Made by a program: the position numbers and the translations under genes. Positions 1,156 through 14,694 of a stretch of 14,695 bases of DNA are shown in pieces. A model generated the notes under the pieces. The model ran no database searches, was not told the DNA's origin, and saw nothing but the letters and a program-made list of their open reading frames with translations. Positions within the stretch are counted from its first letter, which is position 1; each line of letters starts with the position of its first letter. The DNA is from a candidate division WOR-3 bacterium (lineage in GTDB: Bacteria; Hydrothermota; Hydrothermia; B15-G9; WFZT01): contig JALUEE010000049.1 of the NCBI GenBank assembly GCA_027053075.1, positions 1 through 14,695 of the forward strand, read 5' to 3'.

Positions 1156-1836
1156 TTATTGTCCTTCGATTGTATTCAATTTCAACACATTGAGTGATCC
1201 GGATAAATTTAATGTAAAAGCCGCATGGGCGGGTCTTCTGCCACGTACAAAGTTCAAAATACCATTGGTTCTAACCACTGGAATACTGCCGAAGATACCG
1301 ATGGAGCTAAAAGTGGAGAGTATCTCAAACGATTGCCATCTCGGGGCTGAGAAGAGGAGTTTAATCACAGATGAATTGAAATTAAATAAAACCTTTTCAC
1401 ACTTCCGCATCCCTGCCCCGATATATTTGAGTTTCGAAAGGGATAATGTGAGACTGATGGTATCAGCCCGTGAAGTAGAGTCATCTACGATGGTTAAAAA
1501 TGAGGCTTTTGCATCTATTTTCAGGGTCTTTACAGGCAGGTTGGTGATATCAAGTAATACCTCTGCGGTTTTTGCTTTGAGGTAAATTTTTGTTAGGAGG
1601 GGCGGGAGCCCTAAAAGGGCTCCCGCCCCTCCTATCACAACTCCTCGATCTCCATGCAACTCAACCACAAGTGTGTCTCCTACCTGCTGGAACTCCGCAT
1701 CCATTCTCTCTATCTCAACCCCTTTATTCGAGCGATAAACCACCAGTTTCTTTTTACCCACCACCCCTGTTACCTTTATAAACTTTGCCTGACCTAACGG
1801 ATGAATTAACGAAAATATCAAAAGAAATGTCACCAT
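1156..1836 (-). CDS. Exported LiaF/DUF2154 (toast-rack)-like beta-repeat protein
   Basis: Hydrophobic N-terminus; repeated beta-strand segments (IYLKAKTAEVLLDITNLPVKTLKIDAKASFLTIV, ISLTLSLSKLKYI); start overlaps the upstream gene's stop (ATGGTGA); GAGG SD. Confidence 0.65.
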   Translation of the reverse strand: MVTFLLIFSLIHPLGQAKFIKVTGVVGKKKLVVYRSNKGVEIERMDAEFQQVGDTLVVELHGDRGVVIGGAGALLGLPPLLTKIYLKAKTAEVLLDITNLPVKTLKIDAKASFLTIVDDSTSRADTISLTLSLSKLKYIGAGMRKCEKVLFNFNSSVIKLLFSAPRWQSFEILSTFSSIGIFGSIPVVRTNGILNFVRGRRPAHAAFTLNLSGSLNVLKLNTIEGQ

Positions 1837-3389
1837 AGATTCTTCCTCAATCCTGCAAATAATCTGAAATTCCTCTCTGTACCCGGGACAGTAGAAACTC
1901 CAATGTAAAACTCATCCTGCACTATTCCGATTCCAACGTCGTACTTTAGAGAGCCTGTAAGATTTGTTTTTGCGGCATCCATCCTAACGAAAAATTTTGA
2001 ATCAGAAATGCTGTACGCCGCAATCAGATTCACAAGTCCCATCCATCTGTCACCTCTGATCTCATGCCATCCGAATCCGGGCATAGTGAAAGGTCCTCCC
2101 AGGGTAAAATCAAAGGGGGAGGAAAGGCTTTTATCAGAGTAGCCAGCAGCAACTTTCAATATTAAATCAATAGAGTTGAAAGAATACTTAGCCTTTGCCC
2201 TGCCAAAGACTCTCGTAAACTGATAATATGACTTCGATAGCTGCTTTTCAGCTTCAAACCGCATTTTCAGTGATTTGCTCTCAAATCCACCTTCAATACG
2301 CGTAAAATCTACATGTCCTGTTTGAATGGGTGGGTTTCCCCGGAATTTTCTACTCTTCCTGTAAAAGAGGGACCAGTCCGTGGTCTTTCTCAAATTCAAC
2401 AGGTTAGATGTCTCATATCCTGCCTGAATCCAGGCTTCTCTGTAGGTAAGTCCTCCATAAACTCCAAAGCCACGGGCAAGATAGTAATTGGCAAATTCCT
2501 CATGCAGCAAAATGGCTGATAACGTATTCTCAACGCTTGAAAATTTCCATGCATCAGAAGACCTTCTTTCGCTGTATAGCCTCATATAAAGGTAGCCTGG
2601 CCCCACGATGGTTTTTAGCCCATGCATATAAAAATCAAATCTCTTTGATGAGAATCCATATCCAAGGTATCCGTAGTAAAAATCTCTCCCGTGTCTTACA
2701 GAGTTTTCAATATGGAGGCCAAATCCGTCAACCCGTGTGTACTCGAGAGGTGCCCTTTTCCAGGAGCTGAATGGTAACATATATTTGTGCGCTTCTTTTT
2801 CGAATAACTTTTTCTGTGGAGTAATAAGACCCGTGATATTTTTCGTATCTACATGGCCATAGCGGGATTCTATGACGGCACCCTCAAGAGAGGAGCCTTT
2901 ATTTAAATGCAGGTGTATATCACCAAAATCCGTCTTTATCTCACTCTTATGACAAATAGAGCCATAGTACCAGATGTCTCCCGTCTTTGTGAAAATTTCA
3001 AGTGAACCCTCACAACTCTCGTCATGGAGCTCGATATCACCGGTGGATGAGTTGATAAAAATGTTTTTGACAACCTTCGCCCTGAGTTCAATGTCACCGG
3101 ATACAGATTTTACCTTTATGTTCTTTAGAGTGTCTCCTGTCATATCAATATCTCCGCTGATCGTGTTCACCGAGATGGAGTCCACATAACCCGGAATAGC
3201 GAGACTGATGTCCGAATCTTTACCCTGTAGAATAAGCCTGTGGCCCTCGATTTTAAATGAGATACCTTCTAACTCCACTGTGGTATCATTTACTATTTTT
3301 AAGTCGACATTTCCGGCTCCTGAAGTAATTGAGACATAGCTCAAGTCACGTGGAAATACAAGGGAAATGAGAATCATGAGTGTCAGCAT
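1830..3389 (-). CDS. N-terminal DUF4097-like beta-strand repeats fused to a C-terminal outer-membrane beta-barrel (Omp85/BamA-TamA-like, tentative)
   Basis: N-terminal repeats NTISGDI, KSVSGDI, NSSTGDI, FTKTGDI, KTDFGDI. C-terminal ~310 aa has alternating aromatic beta-strands, YTRVDGF and FTLGGPFTMPGFG motifs and a terminal W. SD AGGAGG. Confidence 0.75.
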   Translation of the reverse strand: MLTLMILISLVFPRDLSYVSITSGAGNVDLKIVNDTTVELEGISFKIEGHRLILQGKDSDISLAIPGYVDSISVNTISGDIDMTGDTLKNIKVKSVSGDIELRAKVVKNIFINSSTGDIELHDESCEGSLEIFTKTGDIWYYGSICHKSEIKTDFGDIHLHLNKGSSLEGAVIESRYGHVDTKNITGLITPQKKLFEKEAHKYMLPFSSWKRAPLEYTRVDGFGLHIENSVRHGRDFYYGYLGYGFSSKRFDFYMHGLKTIVGPGYLYMRLYSERRSSDAWKFSSVENTLSAILLHEEFANYYLARGFGVYGGLTYREAWIQAGYETSNLLNLRKTTDWSLFYRKSRKFRGNPPIQTGHVDFTRIEGGFESKSLKMRFEAEKQLSKSYYQFTRVFGRAKAKYSFNSIDLILKVAAGYSDKSLSSPFDFTLGGPFTMPGFGWHEIRGDRWMGLVNLIAAYSISDSKFFVRMDAAKTNLTGSLKYDVGIGIVQDEFYIGVSTVPGTERNFRLFAGLRKNLW

Positions 3390-3402
3390 GGCTTTTCCTC
3401 CT

Positions 3403-4281
3403 TTAGATGGTGCTGTCTGCGACAGTTATATGAACGGAACCGTTGACCGTGTTGATAGACATACTTGCCGAGCCGTCACCGATAATGAACTTTGTTGATT
3501 TGCCAATAAAGTGCCCACTTTCTTCTAAAATTCTCGCTCGGGAGCTCGGTGTCACCTCCACGGAACCGTTTACGCTCGAGCAGGTTACCACCATCCCAAG
3601 ACCAGAGGGGACGGTTACATGGACAGATGCGTTTACCCCGGAAATATCGGCAGTTTTAAATTTTGCTATATTTAATCTCACATCTCCATTGACAGTGGAA
3701 ACATCCAGGGAGTTTGACTTTAGAAACAGCTTTATGTCACCGTTTACTGTGGCTATGGAAGTCTCGTGTGAATTAAGGTTTCCTTTGATGTCTCCGCTAA
3801 CTGTGCCCACATCGAAGGAGTGGGCGTAAATTGTGTAGGGAAGGCTTATATCCCCGTTTACGCTGGAAAGCTCAATGCCACCGAGGGAGTCGGGGACATA
3901 CAGGTCCATGTCTATGCGCACATCGCGCGGAATCCTTTCAATAAACTTTGATTTTTTTCGAACGAGAATCCCGGCCTCATCGCTCCTTCTGTACTCATAA
4001 ATTTTCAGGTAATCGAGTGCTTTTTCTGGGTAGCTGAGCTCGACACGGATATCTTTGCCTTTAGCCTTGAATACGTGAATGTCCCCTGTAACATTTTTGA
4101 GTTCAATCTTGAAATTGGCCGGCTTACCCGGAATTTTGAAAACTATATTTCTGGATGTTGTCGGCTTTGCGTCCTTCGGAATCTTAGTGTCTCCCACTTT
4201 AGCCATGGAATCTGTGTCTATCTTGATGTTTACACATCCCGCAAGGAAAACGGGAATCAACAAAAGTGCCCACTTTCTCAT
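3403..4281 (-). CDS. DUF4097-like (LiaG/YvlB-like) beta-strand repeat lipoprotein
   Basis: MRKW...FLAGC lipobox; repeats NVTGDI, SVNGDI, TVSGDI, TVNGDI, TVNGDV, SVNGSV, TVNGSV; SD AGGAGGTG. Confidence 0.85.
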   Translation of the reverse strand: MRKWALLLIPVFLAGCVNIKIDTDSMAKVGDTKIPKDAKPTTSRNIVFKIPGKPANFKIELKNVTGDIHVFKAKGKDIRVELSYPEKALDYLKIYEYRRSDEAGILVRKKSKFIERIPRDVRIDMDLYVPDSLGGIELSSVNGDISLPYTIYAHSFDVGTVSGDIKGNLNSHETSIATVNGDIKLFLKSNSLDVSTVNGDVRLNIAKFKTADISGVNASVHVTVPSGLGMVVTCSSVNGSVEVTPSSRARILEESGHFIGKSTKFIIGDGSASMSINTVNGSVHITVADSTI

Positions 4282-4291
4282 AATTCACCTC

Positions 4292-4999
4292 CTATAGGCT
4301 ATTAAATTTTTTAATAGCCCATATACCCCCAAATAGCGATGCGATGCCAATAATTGCGTAAAAAACTAAAATCTGAAGCGAAACGGTGACATTGACAAAA
4401 ATACCCTCCACGTGATAAGAGGCAAAGTTCAGGGTAATGCCTTTTAGAGGCGAAAGTATCTGATAGATCAAATGGTCTATGTAAAGGGTAACGATAGCCG
4501 TAAGAAAAGCAAGGAATCCGCTTGAGCGTCTTGCCACTGTTTTGACGGAAAATGCAGGATAAAAAACGGTAAGAACCGGGAAAGTCACAAGCCCGCTCAG
4601 GACTGCAAGTTTAAAGGTTTGAGCAGCCGGAAATGATGGGACCTGATGATATGATGTAATGAAAACCGCAGTAATAATGGATGTTAGGAATGCAAGAAGG
4701 AAGCCTTCAATAAAAACAGCTAAAAACTTTGAAAAAAGAACCTCCTCCAGAGATACGGGAAGTTGTAGAAGAAAGTAAATTGTTCCGCTGTCAAACTCCT
4801 TTTTAATCACATGATAGCCCTGAATGAATATGGCCACGTAAAGGATGGTGAAGGGGATCGAGGAGAATGCAAGAAATGAACCGGGTGAGCCGATTTTCCC
4901 CCTGAAGTAGGCCATCAGGAGGAAATTTACTGAGAGAACCACAAGGAAATGGAGCCTCAACCCCTTTAATTCTTTAGAAAGAAGCTTAGGAATATTCAT
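4292..4999 (-). CDS. ABC-2-type transporter permease
   Basis: About six hydrophobic segments; motifs LLSKELK and KEFDSGTIYFLLQLPVSLEEVLFSKF typical of ABC-2 permeases; overlaps the ATPase stop; GGAGG SD. Confidence 0.85.
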   Translation of the reverse strand: MNIPKLLSKELKGLRLHFLVVLSVNFLLMAYFRGKIGSPGSFLAFSSIPFTILYVAIFIQGYHVIKKEFDSGTIYFLLQLPVSLEEVLFSKFLAVFIEGFLLAFLTSIITAVFITSYHQVPSFPAAQTFKLAVLSGLVTFPVLTVFYPAFSVKTVARRSSGFLAFLTAIVTLYIDHLIYQILSPLKGITLNFASYHVEGIFVNVTVSLQILVFYAIIGIASLFGGIWAIKKFNSL

Positions 5000-5684
5000 G
5001 GTAGACCTCCTTGAAAATGTCCTCTATCGATTTTCCATACTCTTCCCTGAGCTTGTCTGCCGGGCCATAGAGGATGGTTACACCTTTCTTCAGGAAAAGA
5101 ACCTCGTCGAACATATTTTCGGCCTCCCTTACTATGTGTGTGGAGAAAATCACTGTGGATTCGTAAGAAGTGAATATCTTCAAAAGGGCGTCAAGAATGA
5201 GACTTCGGGATAACGGGTCTATGCCGGAAAGAGGCTCGTCGAGCAGAAAGACTTTTGCCCTTCGTGATAGTCCGAGTAAAATCTGGACGCGCTTTCGATA
5301 GCCCTTGGAAAGAGATTTAATCTTTTGCTCCGGGTGTAGCTCGAGCAGCTGGTAGAGCTCTTTCTCCCTTCCGGTGTCCCAGTCGTCAACGAATTTTTTA
5401 ACAATTTCAACATGGTCCCCAATGGTCATATCTTTGTAGAGGGCATCAATTTCCGGGATGTAGGAGGTAAACGTACGTACGTGCTTCCCGGGTCGCTCTC
5501 CATTTACCTCCACCACCCCGGAATTATAGGAGGTGATGCCCGCAAGAGACTTAAGAAGTGTGGATTTTCCGCTTCCGTTTGGTCCTACGAGACCGAGGAT
5601 TTTGCCGCCCTGGAGTGAGAAACTCACTCCATCAAGGGCACGGTTTTTACCGTAATTTTTCGTTAAATTTCTAACTTCTATCAT
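4986..5684 (-). CDS. ABC transporter ATP-binding protein (YtrB-like)
   Basis: Walker A GPNGSGKST, signature LSKGY, Walker B FLLDEP, H-loop STH. Start re-called at ATG 5684 (MIEVRNL), preceded by GGAGGAGGAG, instead of the track start at 5723. Confidence 0.93.
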   Translation of the reverse strand: MIEVRNLTKNYGKNRALDGVSFSLQGGKILGLVGPNGSGKSTLLKSLAGITSYNSGVVEVNGERPGKHVRTFTSYIPEIDALYKDMTIGDHVEIVKKFVDDWDTGREKELYQLLELHPEQKIKSLSKGYRKRVQILLGLSRRAKVFLLDEPLSGIDPLSRSLILDALLKIFTSYESTVIFSTHIVREAENMFDEVLFLKKGVTILYGPADKLREEYGKSIEDIFKEVYHEYS

Positions 5685-6042
5685 TCTCCTCCTCCAGAAG
5701 TTTAAGAATTTTCTCTTTTTCAATGGGAATGCCGATCCCCTTTAAATCATCTACAAATTTATCAACAAGCTGATTTAGCATGCCTTCCCTGAGTTCTCTG
5801 AGCTTTTCTGGGTCTTCAGTAACAAAGTTACCCTGCCCTCGCTTAGTGAATATAACACCCTCTCGAAGCAGCTCCTGATAAGCGTGCTGGACTGTATTGG
5901 GATTCACTTTGAGCTCAATGGCAAGCTCCCTGACGGAAGGTACTTTATTACCCATCCCGTACTCTCCTCTAACAATGGCTTTTTTAATGGCATCGGCTAT
6001 TTGAAGGTATATGGGCTTGCTTTCATCAAAGTTTATTCTCAT
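5671..6042 (-). CDS. GntR family transcriptional regulator, YtrA subfamily
   Basis: PIYLQI...PSVRELAIELKVNPNTVQHAYQELLREGVIFTKRGQGNFV winged HTH; only 123 aa with a short helical C-domain; first gene of an ABC operon. Confidence 0.93.
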   Translation of the reverse strand: MRINFDESKPIYLQIADAIKKAIVRGEYGMGNKVPSVRELAIELKVNPNTVQHAYQELLREGVIFTKRGQGNFVTEDPEKLRELREGMLNQLVDKFVDDLKGIGIPIEKEKILKLLEEENDRS

Positions 6043-6390: not shown

Positions 6391-6445
6391 TTCCTTCCCC
6401 CGCTCGCGAAGCGAGTGGGGGAAGGTCAGGAAGGGGGCATTCCGC
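6391..6445. repeat. Palindrome + purine mirror tail (copy B)
   Basis: 15-bp stem at 6393-6425 (one G-T pair), loop GAA; perfect mirror gggggaagg-tca-ggaaggggg; tail cattccgc; homologous to 10158-10213. Confidence 0.9.
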
Positions 6446-6581
6446 ACATGGTTTCCCCATATTGCACACCTTATCAAATTTCAACTCTTACCAGTGGTGG
6501 GGAGAGGAAAATAGTTAGAGGAAATTTTGGCTTTTCACGCACTTCGTACGGGTCGGACTATGATGAGCTTGTTCGGAAATT

Positions 6582-6638
6582 CCCCCCTCCTATCCTCCCC
6601 CACGCACGAAGTGCGTGGGGGAGGAATAAGGTGGGGGG
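6582..6638. repeat. Palindrome with mirror tails on both sides (copy C)
   Basis: Perfect 15-bp stem at 6593-6625, loop GAA; left mirror ccccctcc-tat-cctccccc; right mirror gggggagga-ata-aggtggggg (1 mismatch). Confidence 0.9.
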
Positions 6639-6752
6639 CAAATTTTTCATTAAAAATTTACGCGGGGAGAGGAAGGAATTTTAGTTTGAGGCGGAAGAAA
6701 TCTTTGCTAAGACAACACAAAACAGTTCCAACAAGTTGAATATAAGTAAAAA

Positions 6753-6814
6753 CGTGCCTTCCCCACAGGCAAAACCTGTGGGGAAGGCACGACAAGGGAG
6801 GCGGTATTCCGCTT
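6753..6814. repeat. Palindrome + tail (copy D)
   Basis: Perfect 17-bp stem at 6753-6791, loop CAAAA; tail caagggagg...attccgctt shared with copies A, B and G. Confidence 0.85.
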
Positions 6815-7050
6815 AAAAAATCCCAATCCACTACAACCAACGAGGTGCATGAAGTAGGCCTTAAGCAAGGATCATTGAGCTGAAATTAAGCTCGAGGGTG
6901 TAGGACTCTTTGTGAATTTCCCGGTTTTCGACAATTTCTCATTGGGCGAAGATATATGTGTATGAGGGCAAAAGTCACACACGGAGATTCAATACAAACC
7001 TGAGATGTGAGTGAACTTATCTGAATGGTTGGAACTGGTATAAATCAATT

Positions 7051-7086
7051 CCCTCTCCCGCTTGCGGGAGAGGGTAGGGGAGAGGG
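7051..7086. repeat. BoxC-like palindrome + purine mirror tail (copy E)
   Basis: ccctctcccg-cttg-cgggagaggg followed by the mirror gggagaggg-tag-gggagaggg. Confidence 0.9.
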
Positions 7087-7222
7087 CTTATATCTTGGTT
7101 TAACCAGGGTCGCATTCTCCAGGACTTAAAAGCGCGAAGCTTATGAATTTAAGGTGCATTACATGTCCTATCTGACCATGCGATTGAAAAAGGCTAAGGG
7201 GATAGATTTGTTTGTTAGATTT

Positions 7223-7259
7223 TGTGGTGGGGCGCGCACGAAGTGCGCGCCCCACCACA
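7223..7259. repeat. GC-rich palindrome, GAA triloop (copy F); may also act as the valS 3' hairpin
   Basis: Perfect 17-bp stem tgtggtggggcgcgcac-GAA-gtgcgcgccccaccaca; same cgcacgaagtgcg core as copies A and C; about 120 nt past the valS stop. Confidence 0.88.
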
Positions 7260-7380
7260 TCTAATATTCAAAATTCAGACCCTACCAAAATTTAAGGTGG
7301 AAAATTGTTGATGGTCACCCATATTCCCATCAATCTTGATAAGAAAACATCCACACGATTGAATCCAAAAACTCACTACC

Positions 7381-10050
7381 CTACAGATTCCTCAGCCTTT
7401 CCTCTAATTTCTCTAATTTATCTTTGAACTTTCCAAGCTTTTCTTTTTCTCGTTCGACGACTTCCTTTGGCGCCTTCTCGAGGAAGTTTTTATTGGATAG
7501 CTTTTTAACAAGCTTCTCTATTTGCTGCTTCAGCGCATTGACTTCCTTTGAAATCCTCGACCTCTCTTTCTCTATGTCAATAATATCTCCAAGTGGCACA
7601 AAGAAGGTCATTCCGTGGGTGTGGATTGTTGCAGCCTTTCCGGGGGCATCGGTAACCTTTTCAATTTTCTCCACCTTTGCAAGAAGCTCTAAAACCGGTA
7701 ACTTTTCCTCAAGAATAGGCACAAAGGCCTCAGCCTCGGGCATTAAGGCCTGGAGAGTGAGCTTCGTATTCTTGGGCAGGTTAAATTCGGCCCTGATCTC
7801 CCTCAATCCTTCCACCACCCCTTTGAGTTGCTCGATATATTCCTCTGATATTGGGTAGGAGTGCTCATCTTTCTCTGGCCAGGGGGCCACCATGATGGAC
7901 TCACCCTCTTTATTCGGAAGCCTCTGCCAGATTTCCTCGGTAATAAACGGCATGTAAGGATGTAGAAGCTTCAGGAATCTATCGAGCACGTAAAAAGCAA
8001 CACTGAGAGCACTGTTTTTGGTCGAACTATCCGCAAGTCTCGGCTTGATCATTTCAAGGTACCAGTCACAGAATTCACCCCAGAAAAATTCGTAGAGTGT
8101 CCATGCGACTCCATTGAAGTCAAATCTATCAAGGCCATTGGTGACTTTGTCTATGGTCTCGTTGAGCTTTGTTAATATCCATTTGTCTTCAAGCTCGAGA
8201 TTCTCAGGAAGGCCGCTCCATTTATAATTGTCATCGAGGTGTAAGAAAAGAAGCCTTGTGGCGTTCCATATTTTGTTGGCAAAATTACGTCCCACCTCGA
8301 GTCTCTTGTCACTATAGATGATGTCCTGACCCTCAGGTGCAATGAGCATGAGCCCCATTCTGACCCCGTCAGCACCATATTTTTCGAAGAGCTCAAGGGG
8401 ATCAGGAGAATTTCCGAGGGATTTTGAAAGCTTCCTACGCAGTTCATCTCTTATAAGGCCGTTCAAGTAGATGTATTCAAAGGGTTCTTTCCCCATGAAT
8501 GCATACCCGGCCATTACCATTCTTGCAACCCAGAAGAAAAGAATATCCCAGCCTGAAATAAGCACATCGTTGGGATAGAAATAACGCAGGTATGGTGTAT
8601 CCTTGGGCCATCCGAGCGTCGAGAAGGGCCAGAGCCAGGATGAGAACCATGTGTCCAAGACATCTTCGTCCTGCTCGAGGTTTGGCGAACCACAGTGTGG
8701 GCACTTTTCGGGTTTTTCCTTGGCCACGGTCATTTCACCGCAGTCTTTGCAGTAATAAACTGGTATCCTGTGCCCCCACCATATCTGGCGCGAAATACAC
8801 CAGTCTTTCACATTCTCAAGCCAGTGAAAATAGACCTTCTTCCAGTTTTCAGGAACAATCTTAATGGTCCCCTCTTTTACCGCTTTTATCGCGGGCTCGG
8901 CGAGGGGTTTCATTTTAACAAACCACTGCTCAGAAAGATAGGGCTCAATCACGGTGTGGCACCTGTAGCAGTGACCCACAGAGTGACTGTAATCCTCGAC
9001 TTTTTCAAGAAATCCCGCATTTTTGAGGTCTTCTACAACCTTTTTCCGTGCCTCAAGCCGGTCAAGTCCCCTGTAAGGGCCGGCATTCTCGTTCATCCTG
9101 GCCTCGAGGTCGAGCACTACCACGTGAGGAAGGTTGTGCCTCTCTGCAATCTCGAAGTCATTGGGGTCGTGTGCAGGCGTGACCTTCACAGCTCCGGTCC
9201 CAAACTCAGGGTCAACGAGTTCGTCGGCGATAATTGGAATCTCTGGTGGAACTTCCTCTCCCTCTCCTTCGATGGCGAAGCTCTTTCTCACCCAGTTAAT
9301 GAGAGGCAGGCGGACCTTTTTACCAATCAGATGTTTGTACCGCTCATCGTTGGGATTTACGGCGACTGCTGTGTCACCAAGGTAAGTTTCAGGTCTTGTG
9401 GTGGCAACGACGATGTATCCATCCCCATCCACAAGGGGATATTTTAAATACCAGAGGTGAGAATGCTCCTCTGAATACTCTACCTCATCGTCGGCAAGTG
9501 CAGTGCCGCATCTCGGGCACCAGTTAATGATTCTTGTGCCTTTATAGATTAAACCTCTTTCATAAAGTCTAACAAAAGCCTCAATTACGGCCTCATACAT
9601 GTCGGGGTCCATGGTGAATTTGGTTCTTGACCAATCAGCGGAGACCCCGAGCTTTCTAAGTTGCTTTAAAATTGTGTTGCCGTACTTCTCTTTCCACTCC
9701 CATACTCGTTTGATAAATTCCTCTCTGCCAAGGTCGAAGCGGGTTTTTCCTTCTTTTGCGAGCTGCCTTTCAACCACGTTCTGTGTCGCTATTCCAGCAT
9801 GGTCAATCCCGGGTTGCCAGAGGGTTTCGTATCCCTGCATTCTCTTCATTCTGATAAGGATATCCTGCAGGGTGTTGTTTAGCACGTGTCCCATGTGAAT
9901 TTTTCCAGTGACGTTGGGGGGTGGCATGGAGATGGCGAACTTCTTTTTGCCGGGTTTGGGCTCAGCCTTGAAGTAGCCTTTTTCTTCCCAGAATTTGTAC
10001 CATTTGTCCTCGACTTTTCTATGGTCGTACTTCTTGTCCATTTCGATCAT
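7381..10050 (-). CDS. valS: Valine--tRNA ligase
   Basis: PPPNVTGKIHMGH (HIGH), DHAGIATQ, VATTRPET and GTGAVKVTPAHD (editing domain), DWCISRQIWWGHRIP, DVLDTWFSS, KLSKS (KMSKS), C-terminal coiled coil FLEKAPKEVV; 889 aa. Confidence 0.99.
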   Translation of the reverse strand: MIEMDKKYDHRKVEDKWYKFWEEKGYFKAEPKPGKKKFAISMPPPNVTGKIHMGHVLNNTLQDILIRMKRMQGYETLWQPGIDHAGIATQNVVERQLAKEGKTRFDLGREEFIKRVWEWKEKYGNTILKQLRKLGVSADWSRTKFTMDPDMYEAVIEAFVRLYERGLIYKGTRIINWCPRCGTALADDEVEYSEEHSHLWYLKYPLVDGDGYIVVATTRPETYLGDTAVAVNPNDERYKHLIGKKVRLPLINWVRKSFAIEGEGEEVPPEIPIIADELVDPEFGTGAVKVTPAHDPNDFEIAERHNLPHVVVLDLEARMNENAGPYRGLDRLEARKKVVEDLKNAGFLEKVEDYSHSVGHCYRCHTVIEPYLSEQWFVKMKPLAEPAIKAVKEGTIKIVPENWKKVYFHWLENVKDWCISRQIWWGHRIPVYYCKDCGEMTVAKEKPEKCPHCGSPNLEQDEDVLDTWFSSWLWPFSTLGWPKDTPYLRYFYPNDVLISGWDILFFWVARMVMAGYAFMGKEPFEYIYLNGLIRDELRRKLSKSLGNSPDPLELFEKYGADGVRMGLMLIAPEGQDIIYSDKRLEVGRNFANKIWNATRLLFLHLDDNYKWSGLPENLELEDKWILTKLNETIDKVTNGLDRFDFNGVAWTLYEFFWGEFCDWYLEMIKPRLADSSTKNSALSVAFYVLDRFLKLLHPYMPFITEEIWQRLPNKEGESIMVAPWPEKDEHSYPISEEYIEQLKGVVEGLREIRAEFNLPKNTKLTLQALMPEAEAFVPILEEKLPVLELLAKVEKIEKVTDAPGKAATIHTHGMTFFVPLGDIIDIEKERSRISKEVNALKQQIEKLVKKLSNKNFLEKAPKEVVEREKEKLGKFKDKLEKLEERLRNL

Positions 10051-10060
10051 AATGCCCTTA

Positions 10061-10089
10061 ATTTTACCTGTGACATCTTAAAAAATCAA
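10061..10089 (-). promoter_or_regulatory. Putative sigma70 promoter of valS
   Basis: Minus strand TTGATT (10089-10084) - 17 nt - TAAAAT (10066-10061), 10 nt upstream of ATG 10050. Confidence 0.6.
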
Positions 10090-10157
10090 TTTTTTGAGAG
10101 TCCTTTAGAAAATTCATTTTCTTATAATCTGCATTGGCGAAACAACTGGCTCTAAGT

Positions 10158-10215
10158 TTCCCTCCCCCACTTGCAAAGCAAGTGGGGGAGGGTGTAGGGA
10201 GGGGGCATTCCGCTT
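10158..10215. repeat. Palindrome + purine mirror tail (copy G)
   Basis: Perfect 15-bp stem at 10160-10192, loop AAA; perfect mirror gggggaggg-tgta-gggaggggg; tail cattccgctt. Confidence 0.9.
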
Positions 10216-10300
10216 GAGAATTAGAAATTCAAGATAAATACAATCTATACAAATCTGCCGCTGAGTTGAATAAAAAATTTTATTTTGAATTTATCCGGGA

Positions 10301-10363
10301 AATTTGATATATGTGTCCCCTCTCCTTTATCCTCTCCCCGCAAGTATTTATGCGGGGAGAGGA
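10301..10363. repeat. Pyrimidine mirror tail + palindrome (copy H), inverted relative to copy K
   Basis: Perfect mirror cccctctcct-tta-tcctctcccc; 13-bp stem at 10330-10363 with an 8-nt loop; the reverse complement aligns with 12837-12900. Confidence 0.9.
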
Positions 10364-10410
10364 GTCTTTGCGTTTGGAAATATCCAAATACACTCATTTG
10401 GGTGTTGTCA

Positions 10411-10439
10411 TTGTAACTTATCCTCGGATGTGTTAAAAT
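10411..10439 (+). promoter_or_regulatory. Putative extended -10 sigma70 promoter of the sigma54 activator gene
   Basis: TTGTAA (10411-10416) - 17 nt - TAAAAT (10434-10439), with a TGn extension (TGT 10431-10433). Confidence 0.65.
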
Positions 10440-10446
10440 TCTTTAC

Positions 10447-12255
10447 ATGAGTGTGGTCAAGGCAAGGGCATTTAGAAAAGTTTTTATCTCCCCCGAAAAA
10501 TTAGAGGAGAGGAAATCCCAGAATGCGAATTTAATCAGCATTATTGAGACCCTTTTCAATGAGTTTAACGTGCGGGAAAACCCATTTACCGTTTCATTCA
10601 CTGATATCGACCGTGTAGTATTGCTTTTAACAGGTAAAAAGCGAGACCCGTTTCTTGAAGAGGGACTTGTCCTGAAAGAAGAATTTGTCGGCAAAACTGC
10701 CATAAATCAGTCCATGAAGTTGGGACACACTGTAGTTTTGAGAGGCGAAGAGCACACATTGCACGCCCTAAAGGACTGGTATTGTGCCGCCGCACCGATC
10801 AGAGACCTGAAAGGCAAAATTATTGGCAGCATTGGCATTTCCACCACTGAGGAAAATTTCCCGGATTATGCTCACGGTATAGTTTCTTCACTTGCGAGAG
10901 CAATTGAAAATGAAAATAACCTGAGGATTGCCCTTGAAGAGGTAGAGGTTTCCCGAAAATACCTCGAAATCATCAGCGAGGCATCCAAGGATGGAGTTTT
11001 GTGTCTCGATGCCAATGGAAAGATTCTCTATATCAATGAAGCCGGGACGCGTATTCTGAAAATTGACCGCGAAAAGGCAATCGGAAGGCATGTTACAGAC
11101 ATCGTTGATTTCACTCCGGTGATCCTCAACGTGTTTAAAACCCACAAAGGCTATGTGGATAAGGAATTCATCATAGAGAGTCCGTCTCGGGGGCTCCTGC
11201 ATTTTATCAAAACTGCTGTGGTTGTAAGGGACAAGGACGGCAACTTTTCAGGAGTGGTGGACTTTTTCAGAGAGATAAATCGGGTCAGGAATTTTGTCAC
11301 CTCCTACATTGGTGCCGAAGCGAAGTTCACCTTTGATGATATTATTGGGGAAAATCCAAGGATAAAAGAGGCCATAAAAATTGCAAAAATTGCCGCACGT
11401 TCCAATTCCTCTGTTTTGATCACCGGTGAAACGGGCACAGGAAAAGAGATGTTTGCCCAGGCCATCCATTTCGAAAGTGATCGCTCAAACGGGCCGTTTG
11501 TAGCCATAAACTGTGGTGCTATCCCGCGTGACCTTGCAGAGAGCGAATTTTTTGGCTATGAGCCCGGGGCTTTCACCGGTGCATCCAAAAAGGGCAGACC
11601 TGGAAAATTTGAGCTCGCCGATGGCGGGACTCTCTTTCTTGACGAGATTGAGGAGCTCCCGCTTTCACTTCAGGCAAAGCTTTTGCGAACCCTCCAGGAC
11701 AAAGTGGTTACCCGTGTTGGAGGCACAAAATCCCTGAAGGTAGATGTAAGAATCATTACTGCATCCAATCGCGACCTCGTGGACCTTGTTAACCGCGGTG
11801 ATTTCCGGAAAGACCTCTATTACAGGCTGAATATCATTCACATCGAAATTCCACCATTGCGGGAACGTAAGGACGATATCCCACTCCTTGTCTCACATTT
11901 TATCCACAAGTACAACGTATCGCTGGGTAAGAATATCAAAAAGGCTGATAAGTCATTCTTGAAGCCATTGGTGCAATATGATTTTCCTGGAAATGTCAGG
12001 GAATTAGAGAACATAGTGGAGCGGGCAGTGAATATTGCCGAGACACCGGTTTTAACCGCTGAGCACCTGCCTCCGTATGTTTTGAATACCCATTCTCGAA
12101 ATGAGCCGGTGAAGACCTTTGATGAGATCAGGAAAGAGCTCCTTGAGGAGACATTAAAGAGCACCAATTTCAATATATCAGAGACTGCGAGGAGACTACA
12201 TATCTCTCGCCCCACAGTTTACAAACTCCTCAAAAAGTATGGGTTGAAAAAGTAG
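10447..12255 (+). CDS. Sigma54-dependent Fis-family enhancer-binding protein, GAF-PAS-AAA+-HTH (AcoR/DhaR-like architecture)
   Basis: GAF (WYCAAAPIRDLKGKIIGSI), PAS (DGVLCLDANGKILYINEAG), Walker A GETGTGKE, ESEFFG, intact GAFTGA, Walker B LFLDE, FRKDLYYRLN, FPGNVRELEN, C-terminal HTH NISETARRLHISRPTVYKLLKK. Confidence 0.95.
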   Translation: MSVVKARAFRKVFISPEKLEERKSQNANLISIIETLFNEFNVRENPFTVSFTDIDRVVLLLTGKKRDPFLEEGLVLKEEFVGKTAINQSMKLGHTVVLRGEEHTLHALKDWYCAAAPIRDLKGKIIGSIGISTTEENFPDYAHGIVSSLARAIENENNLRIALEEVEVSRKYLEIISEASKDGVLCLDANGKILYINEAGTRILKIDREKAIGRHVTDIVDFTPVILNVFKTHKGYVDKEFIIESPSRGLLHFIKTAVVVRDKDGNFSGVVDFFREINRVRNFVTSYIGAEAKFTFDDIIGENPRIKEAIKIAKIAARSNSSVLITGETGTGKEMFAQAIHFESDRSNGPFVAINCGAIPRDLAESEFFGYEPGAFTGASKKGRPGKFELADGGTLFLDEIEELPLSLQAKLLRTLQDKVVTRVGGTKSLKVDVRIITASNRDLVDLVNRGDFRKDLYYRLNIIHIEIPPLRERKDDIPLLVSHFIHKYNVSLGKNIKKADKSFLKPLVQYDFPGNVRELENIVERAVNIAETPVLTAEHLPPYVLNTHSRNEPVKTFDEIRKELLEETLKSTNFNISETARRLHISRPTVYKLLKKYGLKK

Positions 12256-12505
12256 GGGTCCGAGGTCTGTTGGATGATCACATCTTTAGAAAGTTTTGAT
12301 CAGGGAAAGTATTTACCCACCCACCTTTAACTGTAATGCGAGGGCTTACTTTGGGGGCTCAACTTTGACACTATTTCCCAAAACGATTGATATTCAATCA
12401 ATTTCTGTGTACCACTATTTTGACATTCAAATTTGAAAATCCGCAAAAATGCGACAAAAATTCTCCGCAAGTGTCAAACTTGAGTTAGGATGGGAATTTT
12501 TAAGG

Positions 12506-12530
12506 GGGCGCCGCGCGAAGCGCGGCGCCC
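12506..12530. repeat. All-GC palindrome, GAA triloop (copy I)
   Basis: Perfect 11-bp stem gggcgccgcgc-GAA-gcgcggcgccc containing the GCGAAGC minihairpin. Confidence 0.85.
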
Positions 12531-12760
12531 ACACCCCCAGATTTTCCATAATGAATCCCCCTCCACGCATAAAGTACACAGAGCATTTTGGCAGGATTAT
12601 GATGATTTTATACCTATACAGGTTAAACCTTAAATTTTCAGATGAGGGTGTAAATGTCCACAGGCTTTGCTCGTAGGGAAGGGCGTTTTTTTTGAGATTG
12701 CAGGGAGAATTGAGGTAAGGAACACATCTGAAGAATTTTTCGGTCAAAATCCACAAATCT

Positions 12761-12797
12761 CCCTCTCCTGCTTTGCGGGAGAGAGCAGGGGTGCGGG
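12761..12797. repeat. Degenerate BoxC-like copy (copy J)
   Basis: ccctctcctgctttgcgggagagagcaggggtgcggg aligns with copy E, ccctctcccgcttgcgggagagggtaggggagaggg. Confidence 0.75.
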
Positions 12798-12836
12798 TGT
12801 TAAGTTTTGGAATATCCTGCTTCCATAAAAAATATT

Positions 12837-12900
12837 TCCTCCCCCCGCATAAATTTGTTTGCGGGGGGAGGATGAAAGGAGAGGGGTCACATCATAAATT
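12837..12900. repeat. Palindrome + purine mirror tail (copy K)
   Basis: 13-bp stem at 12837-12872 with a 10-nt loop; mirror ggggggagga / aggagagggg (1 mismatch); inverted homolog of copy H. Confidence 0.88.
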
Positions 12901-12986
12901 CTTTATCAAAAATCCGTCTCCACCCTGTGTGTGAAAGGTTGTGGTGAGGATTTGCGTTTTGATTCCTCAAATTTTTGAACGGAAAG

Positions 12987-13032
12987 CCATCTCCCATTGC
13001 CCTTCCCCGCCTGCGCAGCAGGCAGGGAAGGG
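12987..13032. repeat. Palindrome with GCA triloop and degenerate pyrimidine tail (copy L)
   Basis: cccttccccgcctgc-GCA-gcaggcagggaaggg (13000-13032, one C-A mismatch), preceded by ccatctccc. Confidence 0.8.
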
Positions 13033-13071
13033 ATATCGATCTGCAAATTTTCCACATTACCTTTGATTTTA

Positions 13072-14694
13072 TCAGTTCACAACCACTGCCTTAAATCTCT
13101 CTACACCCCGCGTTTTCCTCACCTCTATGAAATACACTCCTGACCCCAGGGAGAAATGCAGATGATTTTGCCCTCTTATCGTCCTGATTTCCCTTTCCAG
13201 TATCTTCCTTCCATCAACTCTGTAAACTGCGACTTTCACCATCTCCCCGTGAGTTCTGATATCAAAGTTCAAGCCATGTGTGCTCAAAATCCCCGGAATT
13301 TTATTTTCCCTTATCTCCTCATGAATGGGTGATTCAACAATTCCAGTCATCGGTGAGCTTCCATAGAGCTTTGTTACCACGGAGTCGCTTCTTATGATGT
13401 AATGTCCACCGTTATCAACGACAAAGCCGTCCACCATCCATATATATAGAGGTCCGTGATAATTACTATCGAACAATTTCTCGTGAATCACCTCACCTGT
13501 ATTCCCATCAAGTTCAGCATAAAATCTGCTACTGAATACAACAACCCTGCCAGAATTCGGATCAAATTTGACGAAGGCCTTGTCATAACCCCCAGAATCA
13601 ACGAGAGTGGACCAGAGGGTGTTTCCATTGGAGTCTATTTTGTAGACATATAGGGAATCGTAATTTATCCCCGCGGCAAAATAGTTCCCATTGGGCCCCA
13701 CATCTATACTCACTATCCCATAGTTAGCAGCATTAAATTCGTTTACCCACATAGCATTGCCGCTGGCAGGGTTAATTTTCATCAGAAGTAACCTTCTCCC
13801 CGTGCCATCATTTGCCCAACCTCCAATTACTACACACCCACTACTATCCAGAGCAATTGACATTACTTCCACATGTTGAGCTAAGTAATTACGATTGACC
13901 CATAAAGTGTCCCCATTTTCATGGCTAATTCGGGCAACCGTAGGTCCTCTGTCACCGTTTGAATACACACTATTTCCAGCCACAACAAAATCCCCGTTCG
14001 GAAGTGCCACAATTTTTTCAAAAGTCCCACGTGACAGAGTGTAGTACCATGTGCTCAGGCAACCGTTGTTATCCATCCTCGCGATCGCGTAGTTGTCTGA
14101 GTTTGTCATCCTTCTGGCCAGAAAAACCACTGTGTCCTGCTTTAGAGTAAAACTTTTTACATCGTAGAAATCAGTAGTGCAGGATACAGTAGAAATTGGG
14201 TCTCCGAGCGAGTCCATTTTTTCAAAGCCTATAACAAGCTGGTCGTATCCCAGAGGTTGTGCAATGGGGAGAAGATAATTTCCATCAACGGATATTCTCA
14301 TCGAATTATCTAAGAGCATATAAGAGTGAACACTATAGTTTTTATACCACATGATTTCGCGATCAACAGGTGTGAATTTCGCTACAATAACTGCACCTGT
14401 GTCACCAAAATAGTTGTAGCCGCATGCAACGTAATTACCAGACGTATCAAGTGCCGCTGACATGAATTCACCATTATCCCAGTCTGATGGAGCGAAGTCA
14501 TATTTATATTCTTCATAAACCAAATTCCCTCTGTAAGGAGCAAGTACGATTATCCAGGGGTAAAGAAGACTGTAATAATCCACTCCACCTGCGATGAAGT
14601 AGTAGTTGTTTTTGTCCACAATTAGCGATTTGGGATGTGTGTTGTAATATGTCCAGCCCCTGAAAGCATGAGTGGTAGTCCACTCCCTTTGCAA
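13072..14694 (-). CDS. Secreted beta-propeller-like protein with a T9SS type A-like C-terminal sorting domain; 5' end outside the window
   Basis: Blade-like repeats VDKNNYYFIAGG, ALDTSGNYVACGY, ALPNGDFVVAG, ALDSSGCVVIGGW, VGPNGNYFAAG and KIDSNGNTLW. After the linker GIVES come VYRVDGRKI and LGSGVYFIEV...KAVVVN*. The frame is open to the window edge. Confidence 0.8.
   Translation of the reverse strand: MQREWTTTHAFRGWTYYNTHPKSLIVDKNNYYFIAGGVDYYSLLYPWIIVLAPYRGNLVYEEYKYDFAPSDWDNGEFMSAALDTSGNYVACGYNYFGDTGAVIVAKFTPVDREIMWYKNYSVHSYMLLDNSMRISVDGNYLLPIAQPLGYDQLVIGFEKMDSLGDPISTVSCTTDFYDVKSFTLKQDTVVFLARRMTNSDNYAIARMDNNGCLSTWYYTLSRGTFEKIVALPNGDFVVAGNSVYSNGDRGPTVARISHENGDTLWVNRNYLAQHVEVMSIALDSSGCVVIGGWANDGTGRRLLLMKINPASGNAMWVNEFNAANYGIVSIDVGPNGNYFAAGINYDSLYVYKIDSNGNTLWSTLVDSGGYDKAFVKFDPNSGRVVVFSSRFYAELDGNTGEVIHEKLFDSNYHGPLYIWMVDGFVVDNGGHYIIRSDSVVTKLYGSSPMTGIVESPIHEEIRENKIPGILSTHGLNFDIRTHGEMVKVAVYRVDGRKILEREIRTIRGQNHLHFSLGSGVYFIEVRKTRGVERFKAVVVN

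Follow-up and report, generated by a model that had tools for sequence, protein, structure and literature searches.

Introduction

Short three-armed repeats, in which a pyrimidine arm, a complementary purine arm and a mirror of the purine arm follow each other, have been described in Escherichia coli as BoxC or PIT elements since the 1990s, with function and origin left unexplained, and the single-stranded motif (TMECO) has been found to form a triplex in vitro according to the accessible text of PMC4666352. The same repeats go under the names HPG1 and HPG2 in the accessible text of PMC5100583. Repeats of this kind occur in a stretch of 14,695 nt (contig JALUEE010000049.1 of assembly GCA_027053075.1; hereafter the window) from a candidate division WOR-3 bacterium (WFZT01), where six copies, B, C, E, G, H and K, are addressed here. 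The family has been followed through the source genome (G000, 95% complete), its close relative G004 and a set of 41 relatives including five congeners (assemblies 77-100% complete); C followed by a number denotes a contig. With a probability of roughly 55%, we consider the repeats to be the left-end (L) and right-end (R) types, and gene-less end pairs, of a selfish cassette encoding a DUF559 protein, with capture by miniature inverted-repeat transposable elements (MITEs) as a local amplifier.

As far as the accessible text of PMC4666352 describes them, BoxC/PIT/TMECO elements share with the present repeats the pyrimidine-purine-mirror order, G-rich stems of 8-10 triads, a second loop of 3-4 nt, the intergenic location and inverted pairs of two types. 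Unlike them, most copies here possess a first loop of 11-16 nt with an inner stem, a four-armed double form occurs, approximately 300 loci stand against 23, and some copies are packaged in MITEs. Equally unlike the situation here, that text names no partner gene and reports the motif as unlinked to transposons. A second relation exists to the Ssn nuclease and its SRM-NTS repeats, where a small single-domain nuclease gene is flanked by its own dispersed hairpin repeats with variants tied to homologues, although the putative nuclease here is Vsr-like with a PD-(D/E)XK instead of a GIY-YIG fold and its repeat is extended by a third arm; the accessible text of PMC11893778 mentions neither DUF559 nor triplex nor Vsr. 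For a selfish element driven by a Vsr-type domain, the homing endonuclease I-Bth0305I provides a precedent (PMC3239194 and PMC3384342, accessible parts). The catalytic fold is related and includes a histidine beside conserved acidic residues (EDxHD), but DUF559 comes without DNA-binding domain, intron or intein and is flanked by structured repeats instead.

Common features with MITEs of DDE-type insertion sequences (IS) are 15-bp terminal inverted repeats (TIRs), 9-10-bp duplications, a non-coding interior, filled and empty alleles and an intact partner IS; unlike in the usual MITEs, nearly all members here have triplex-type cargo. In the RAYT/TnpA-REP systems (REP/REPIN/BIME), one gene per genome is bracketed by inverted repeats, and gene-less doublets and mosaic arrays occur. 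A single DUF559 gene bracketed by inverted repeats with gene-less pairs elsewhere is a similar arrangement, but the source genome has no Y1 HuH transposase (0 PF01797 matches), and we know of no strand-joining chemistry for DUF559. A literature link between DUF559 or ycjD and BoxC or triplex repeats was not found, as judged by titles and the beginnings of abstracts with subscription journals mostly uncovered. The repeat class is thus already known; new here are the test of the triad code, the near-neutral decay, gene-less pairs with cassette tails, MITEs together with their partner IS and the match of DUF559 clade to repeat type.

A genome-wide repeat family with a predicted triple-helical fold

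The original prediction claimed six three-armed copies in the window, and all six have been found, each intergenic and with the order pyrimidine arm (Y-arm), loop, purine arm (R-arm), 3-4 nt and mirror of the R-arm. A search of the source genome for this motif returned 116 matches in a strict scan against 0, 1, 2, 0 and 2 in five dinucleotide shuffles, and 349 strand matches in a relaxed scan, equal to 313 loci, against 0, 1, 0 and 0 in four shuffles. The expanded family that had been anticipated from the few window copies therefore exists, with 306 of the 313 loci outside open reading frames (ORFs) of at least 180 amino acids. As the opposite polarity, represented by the reversed genome, gave 6 relaxed matches compared with 349, essentially one polarity is present, which corresponds to class II in the scheme of PMC4666352 as far as its text is accessible. 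Congeners show different purine patterns with identical geometry; lineage-specific are only the subfamilies and not, as had been suggested, the class itself.

Because a scan that demands the mirror is unable to test the mirror, the register was fixed by anchors and three triad positions were left free in 263 elements. Two of these positions covary (101 T-A.A plus 86 C-G.G against 18 discordant elements, and 105 plus 127 against 22), and off-register controls involving them gave little signal in most cases (three at p 0.26-1.0). At the third, which is the weakest of the triad positions, a stem change is followed by the third arm in 3 of 11 cases (p 0.026). It is at this site that copies B and G differ, and the stem pairs T6395/A6423 and C10162/G10190, from which three-way covariation had been proposed, were read correctly; the proposal holds for the two strongly covarying positions, but hardly for the position it was drawn from. 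The purine variant of copy B is inherited, since the orthologue in G004 carries the identical variant (with the hairpin loop flipped), and the strong covariation is, equally, largely found between subfamilies and therefore inherited.

Mirror and direct order of the third arm were compared beginning from hairpins with the third arm unconstrained, which resulted in a ratio of 350:5 with 55 ties in the source genome and of 87:0 in the flanks of DUF559 homologues. The purine motif of triple helices permits A and T opposite A. Counted where all G triads are perfect, with a register rule that disfavours G but not C, the base opposite A was A in 221, T in 138, G in 19 and C in 3 cases in the source genome (A or T in 359 of 381) and T in 146, A in 102 and G or C in 0 cases in the homologue flanks (A or T in 248 of 248). 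The triads of both sets conform to the C-G.G, T-A.A and T-A.T set. The TMECO pattern of PMC4666352 in its accessible form (first loop 3-6 nt, second loop 3 nt) is matched by copy E and five other loci and not by B, C, G, H and K, of which the first loops are longer. Judged by these features, the window copies are class II purine-motif triplex motifs of the BoxC/PIT/TM type with predicted folding, in support of the triplex geometry and the BoxC/PIT identity put forward originally.

A DUF559 cassette with inward-pointing repeat ends

One PF04480 match is held by the source genome, a stand-alone DUF559 gene of 111 amino acids in a repeat cluster. An L copy on one side of the gene and an inverted R copy on the other delimit a cassette of 559 bp (C26:16409-16967) with ends that point inwards. 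A sigma-70-type promoter (TTAACA-17-TATAAT, 11 of 12 consensus matches), of which the -35 box is the end of the conserved L tail, ends 6 nt 5' of the ATG, which suggests a leaderless transcript. Inverted, convergent pairs of the two repeat types are equally present without the gene; 27 such pairs have a spacer of 26-42 bp and 14 a spacer of 89-113 bp, with G and H among the pairs, and most carry both cassette tails; the number of gene-less L/R pairs with the ends of the cassette is at least 27.

The DUF559 protein matches a solved homologue, 3HRL, with an E value of 2.6e-27 and shows weak matches to 3R3P (E 0.08) and to Vsr (TIGR00632, E 1e-5). Residues E19, D47, E58, D60 and H64, invariant in 20 of 20 DUF559 sequences, may constitute a putative EDxHD/Vsr-type active site by analogy with the accessible parts of PMC3239194 and PMC3384342. 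A cognate protein of the repeats had been anticipated, and DUF559, one of the nucleases suggested and the one found flanked by repeats, is the likely candidate for this missing partner enzyme. A small GIY-YIG protein is not encoded in the source genome, where the sole PF01541 match is a 712-aa frame with no motif nearby.

The DUF559 homologues considered are the best 80 of 228 loci from GTDB, some of them near-duplicates. A strict motif is present within 300 bp of the gene in 46 of the 80 loci, 30 of which have one on either side; once T.A-T triads are admitted, the numbers rise to 59 of 80 for at least one side and to 34 for both, the latter spanning at least 12 phyla. While 87 matches were counted in 39 kb within 250 bp, 2 were counted in 144 kb beyond 500 bp. 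The polarity is mostly inward, with 42 plus-strand versus 12 matches upstream and 39 minus-strand versus 14 downstream. In a tree of the 80 proteins built by a quick method with Shimodaira-Hasegawa-like approximate likelihood ratio (SH-aLRT) in place of bootstrap support, a 16-member clade (SH-aLRT 93) from Chloroflexota, Nitrospirota, Thermodesulfobacteriota and Elusimicrobiota has a GATT-ended repeat type in 16 of 16 loci (20 matches with this label, from which L004, L025, L033 and L044, plain hairpins on inspection, were excluded), whereas other DUF559s from three of these four phyla are without it. This match of clade to repeat type shows gene and ends travelling together from one origin, short of proving co-evolution.

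Among the 41 relatives, a stand-alone DUF559 was found in only three and all three carry repeats; a DUF559 gene implies repeats, but repeats do not imply the gene. The TMECO pattern as used here reproduces the counts of 23, 29 and 1 given in the accessible text of PMC4666352 for E. coli, where two strains with the DUF559 gene ycjD have 23 and 29 motifs and four without it have 1, 2, 11 and 6. The ycjD gene, present in 3,378 of 5,426 E. coli genomes, occupies the place of eefRABCD of other phylogroups (PMC12817139, accessible part).

The reading that we prefer would involve the following steps. A single-stranded cassette end would fold into a purine-motif triple helix, DUF559 (YcjD, Vsr-like nuclease-type) would recognise the folded end and nick, and host repair would copy the nicked ends to new places. 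Motifs captured as cargo by IS5-like MITEs would acquire a second, local vehicle.

Alternatively, DUF559 could cut the folded repeats without spreading them, as an SsnA-like domesticated single-strand cutter acting, for example, against incoming DNA, while the repeats multiply via MITEs, slippage and recombination. The layout is that of NTS-ssnA-NTS, and 71% of loci with a repeat and 42% with repeats on two sides in the accessible text of PMC11893778 compare with the 59 and 34 of 80 found here; furthermore, DUF559 is present in a single copy per genome, and the direct evidence for mobility concerns MITEs only. We nevertheless regard this scenario as unlikely, as the high repeat loads in gene-less congeners leave a host function little to act through, and 252-274 of the 313 loci lie outside MITEs yet have cassette-type ends.

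A clean empty cassette site was not found in G004, where different sequence follows beyond the shared upstream gene, and contigs from public runs contain many repeat-to-repeat joints at the cassette which are indistinguishable from paralogues. Direct repeats of approximately 165 bp flank the cassette (L001:1135-1300 and 1909-2075), so that recombination could delete it. The ends of a multi-copy IS, presumably IS3-like from the resemblance of its ORF start to IS3-family transposases, are located inside triplex copies or 6 nt from them in 2 of 8 cases in the source genome (G000:C26:17142, equal to L001 ~2080, and G000:C32 near 190). A DDE transposase (528-aa frame, short inverted ends) resides within an L/R repeat array at G000:C111 ~12520-14150 (L213).

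Miniature elements with triplex-type cargo and their partner insertion sequence

In an alignment of G004 with G000 that covers 629 kb out of 708 kb, mostly of contigs picked for repeat content, 195 scan matches divide into 122 shared, 38 diverged and 35 in gaps. The clean gaps between the two genomes comprise nine units of approximately 130 bp and three of 345-384 bp, with GAGYNYGTTCGAAAA as inverted repeat at the boundaries and, in most cases, duplications of 9-10 bp beside them; array indels end within repeated units. Throughout the source genome, 54 TIR pairs with a 9-10-bp target-site duplication (TSD) have been identified compared with 0 in the reversed control, of which 53 hold a Y/R hairpin and 36 the full motif, the cargo being derived from at least three founder interiors. 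Of the 313 loci, however, no more than 39-61 belong to these MITEs.

G004 contains an intact IS of 1061 bp (G004:C168:4933-5993) that shares these TIRs and has a perfect duplication of 10 bp; remnants of it occur in G000. Its DDE transposase matches PF01609 above the cut-off, and the nearest NCBIfam model is IS5_2 with 104 bits against a cut-off of 140. As the MITE ends match this element, the IS5-like IS is the likely mover of the MITEs. The transposases of the source genome itself (five PF01609 matches and one PF13751 match) are all without these TIRs, and an intact transposase ORF between the TIRs was not found there.

A further reading is that the motifs are passive cargo of IS5-like MITEs and other IS, and that DUF559 genes simply land among them. 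The nearly universal Y/R hairpin in the TSD-supported MITEs, the intact IS with the same TIRs, the clean indels of both sizes and the ends of other IS in or beside copies can all be accounted for in this way. Passive cargo is already weakened and, in our estimate, rather improbable: high numbers of the TIR are confined to G000 and G004 in the set of 41 relatives, while G002 and G005 are motif-rich without it; on other metagenome contigs (L226, L234, L237, L259, L264 and L281), pairs of this TIR with the size of a MITE (105-118 bp) gave no triplex match; and the inward polarity around DUF559 in many phyla as well as the match of repeat type to clade would be left unexplained.

The MITE insertion sites tend to have TCA before them, in many cases TGTCA (half of a -35 box in reverse), and TGA after them. 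In three MITEs the four-armed motif is split by the same insert of approximately 228 bp (G000:C23:46038-46389, C29:12345-12694 and C50:11549-11898), and ends related to this insert stop several contigs. Between TIRs of the MITE type, a related transposase of 301 amino acids is found on another metagenome contig (L250).

Near-neutral decay of resident copies

The arms of 73 orthologous copies differ between G000 and G004 by 6.4-7.9%, the flanks by 11.4% and the loops by 16%. The changes comprise 98 that break a triad in a single arm, 6 in both stem arms with the triad broken and 1 three-way change. Choosing the copies from a single genome conceals as many as half of the changes; the divergence therefore fits near-neutral decay, and resident copies appear to decay almost neutrally once inserted. 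With 98 single-arm changes against one three-way change, the fold is seemingly kept in the multiplying founder copies and not in each resident copy. That the fold rather than the sequence is conserved, as originally proposed, consequently holds between subfamilies, congeners and phyla, but not within the individual resident copy.

Decay at a near-neutral rate speaks against regulation by every single locus. It also weighs against the view that the host maintains the repeats as local regulatory or genome-plasticity sites (hairpins that resemble terminators or stabilise RNA, pauses of the fork) which work in triplex form. Such a role would suit the position of almost all loci outside long ORFs, the hairpins predicted to stay folded at 70 C and the link of TM loci to instability reported in the accessible text of PMC4666352. 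On the other hand, many copies occur in one genome only, the gene neighbours of copies differ among congeners, and earlier in vivo tests reported in the same text detected neither a promoter nor a terminator nor a polymerase effect, which makes a host-kept role very unlikely. Least probable of all is a conserved G-quadruplex/hairpin switch (HPG1/HPG2) with the mirror as a by-product of four G-tracts, for even though copies E and G fit the canonical G-quadruplex pattern and the E. coli motifs switch between quadruplex and hairpin depending on ions (PMC5100583, accessible part), only 104 of the 349 strand matches and none of B, C, H and K are canonical, such a switch would neither keep C out of the interrupting positions (3 of 381 and 0 of 248) nor give the mirror an advantage over the direct repeat, and nuclear magnetic resonance favoured the triplex (PMC4666352, accessible part).

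Standing of the selfish-cassette reading

Several observations weigh against a selfish DUF559 cassette as the source of the repeats. The third arm is hardly better kept than the flanks (7.9% versus 11.4%, with ascertainment bias), and a single three-way change was seen. Every clean filled/empty site in the 629 kb had MITE ends, and no TIR-free, sharp-ended L+R unit was found at a clean empty site there, so that the direct evidence for movement concerns MITEs only and the evidence for DUF559 is associative. The ratio of 87 to 2 matches around DUF559 homologues is measured against a distal control of largely coding DNA, with DUF559 as the sole gene family counted. Of the 38 relatives without DUF559, 12 carry repeats, 8 of these with at least 10 matches, and 26 carry none; DUF559 was not found in any of the five congeners, which hold 30-294 pattern matches (sums of three patterns that possibly overlap), and a query with the DUF559 protein in G001, G004, G005, G011 and G023 gave only one fragment at E 0.097. 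Equally, the contrast in TMECO counts with and without ycjD comes from six hand-chosen, phylogenetically non-independent E. coli strains, and the E. coli ycjD has a TMECO on the 3' side only, approximately 170 bp past the stop codon, with none upstream. Finally, the accessible text of PMC4666352 reports no triplex signal in double-stranded DNA or in dimethyl sulfate footprinting in vivo. Loss of the gene after expansion, or assembly breaks at a repeat-rich cassette, might explain the gene-less congeners.

Extended beyond this lineage, the selfish-cassette reading leads to a more tentative proposal, to which we give less than even odds. BoxC/PIT would represent the ends of a pan-bacterial selfish class moved by a triplex-reading nuclease of the Vsr fold, of which the clades cross phyla with their own purine code, leave hundreds of gene-less pairs and are often lost, and ycjD would encode the BoxC enzyme. 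With a candidate partner gene, a promoter-bearing cassette, gene-less derivatives and a conventional second vehicle, the BoxC question becomes testable at the bench, for which E. coli K-12 offers ycjD together with 23 motifs. Should the triple helix be what DUF559 reads, the protein would be a nuclease specific to a non-B DNA structure and part of a natural protein-triplex recognition system, and triplex DNA would gain a concrete biological role in bacteria.

The copies in the window and their surroundings

The six copies are found 3' of a GntR gene, on both flanks of valS and 3' of a sigma-54 activator gene, close to where they had been placed, although the arms of B, C and G begin 1-2 nt further to the right. 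Copy B (6393-6437, plus strand) is of L type with nine perfect triads followed by a partial L tail, and copy G (10160-10205, plus) is of L type with nine perfect triads and, behind them, the conserved L tail with TTGA at its end. Copies E (7051-7086, plus, nine perfect triads), H (10317-10363, minus, ten perfect triads) and K (12837-12886, plus, ten triads with one mismatch) are of R type. The perfect mirror claimed for B, G, E and H is thus borne out by 9-10 perfect triads, although E, an exact fit to the published TMECO pattern (PMC4666352, accessible part), is uninformative because its purine arm is its own mirror and cannot separate mirror from direct repeat. The mismatch in K, where a stem C-G pair faces A in the third arm, is a counter-example to the covarying mirror. 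Copy C (6583-6637, both strands) is four-armed with a triplex motif per strand, of eight perfect triads on the minus strand and nine on the plus strand, one of the latter being T.A-T.

Copies C, G and H are not independent units. Copy C is carried as cargo by a MITE in truncated form, of which the left TIR is present at 6565-6579 (plus, one mismatch) and the right end has been lost through a 131-bp deletion; in G004 the right end is intact with a 9-bp duplication. Copies G and H are the halves of one mobile, MITE-like unit of 298 bp (10098-10395, plus), a convergent L+R pair with degenerate TIRs at 10098 and 10395, without a retained TSD and with about 12 near-full-length paralogues in the genome. 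In contigs from two public runs, both belonging to one study, 10098 is directly followed by 10408, and these contigs represent an allele without this unit; as they match at 88% likeness, the allele stems from related strains. In the orthologue of copy H in G004 an IS end interrupts the third arm (G004:C267:1-110, L092).

Degenerate copies accompany the intact ones. An L-type copy at 6757-6803 (plus) has an 8-nt second loop, two mismatches and an L tail, a degenerate half copy is located at ~6658-6684, and an R-type copy at 12760-12797 (plus) is intact in G004. An L-like copy at 12987-13032 (minus) is the convergent partner of K, and blocks that resemble this pair are found on C18, C44, C54 and C106.

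GC-rich hairpins with GAA loops and without a third arm are located at 7223-7259, 12506-12530 and ~1103-1126; they share the inner stem of copy C and may be a separate or stripped repeat family. Loops at 6408-6410, 6608-6610 and 6771-6773 are reverse-complement flips (GAA/TTC) relative to their orthologues on G004:C194, and both loop orientations are frequent across the genome, as a sign of extrusion or template switching. Of the remaining genes, a co-directional set at 1156-6042 (minus) encodes GntR, an ABC ATPase, a permease and a pair of DUF4097 proteins and resembles an ordinary YtrA-type operon. At 13072-14694 (minus), a beta-propeller-like protein of 540 amino acids is encoded that has a weak C-terminal sorting signal of the type IX secretion system (T9SS; 20.7 bits, cut-off 23).

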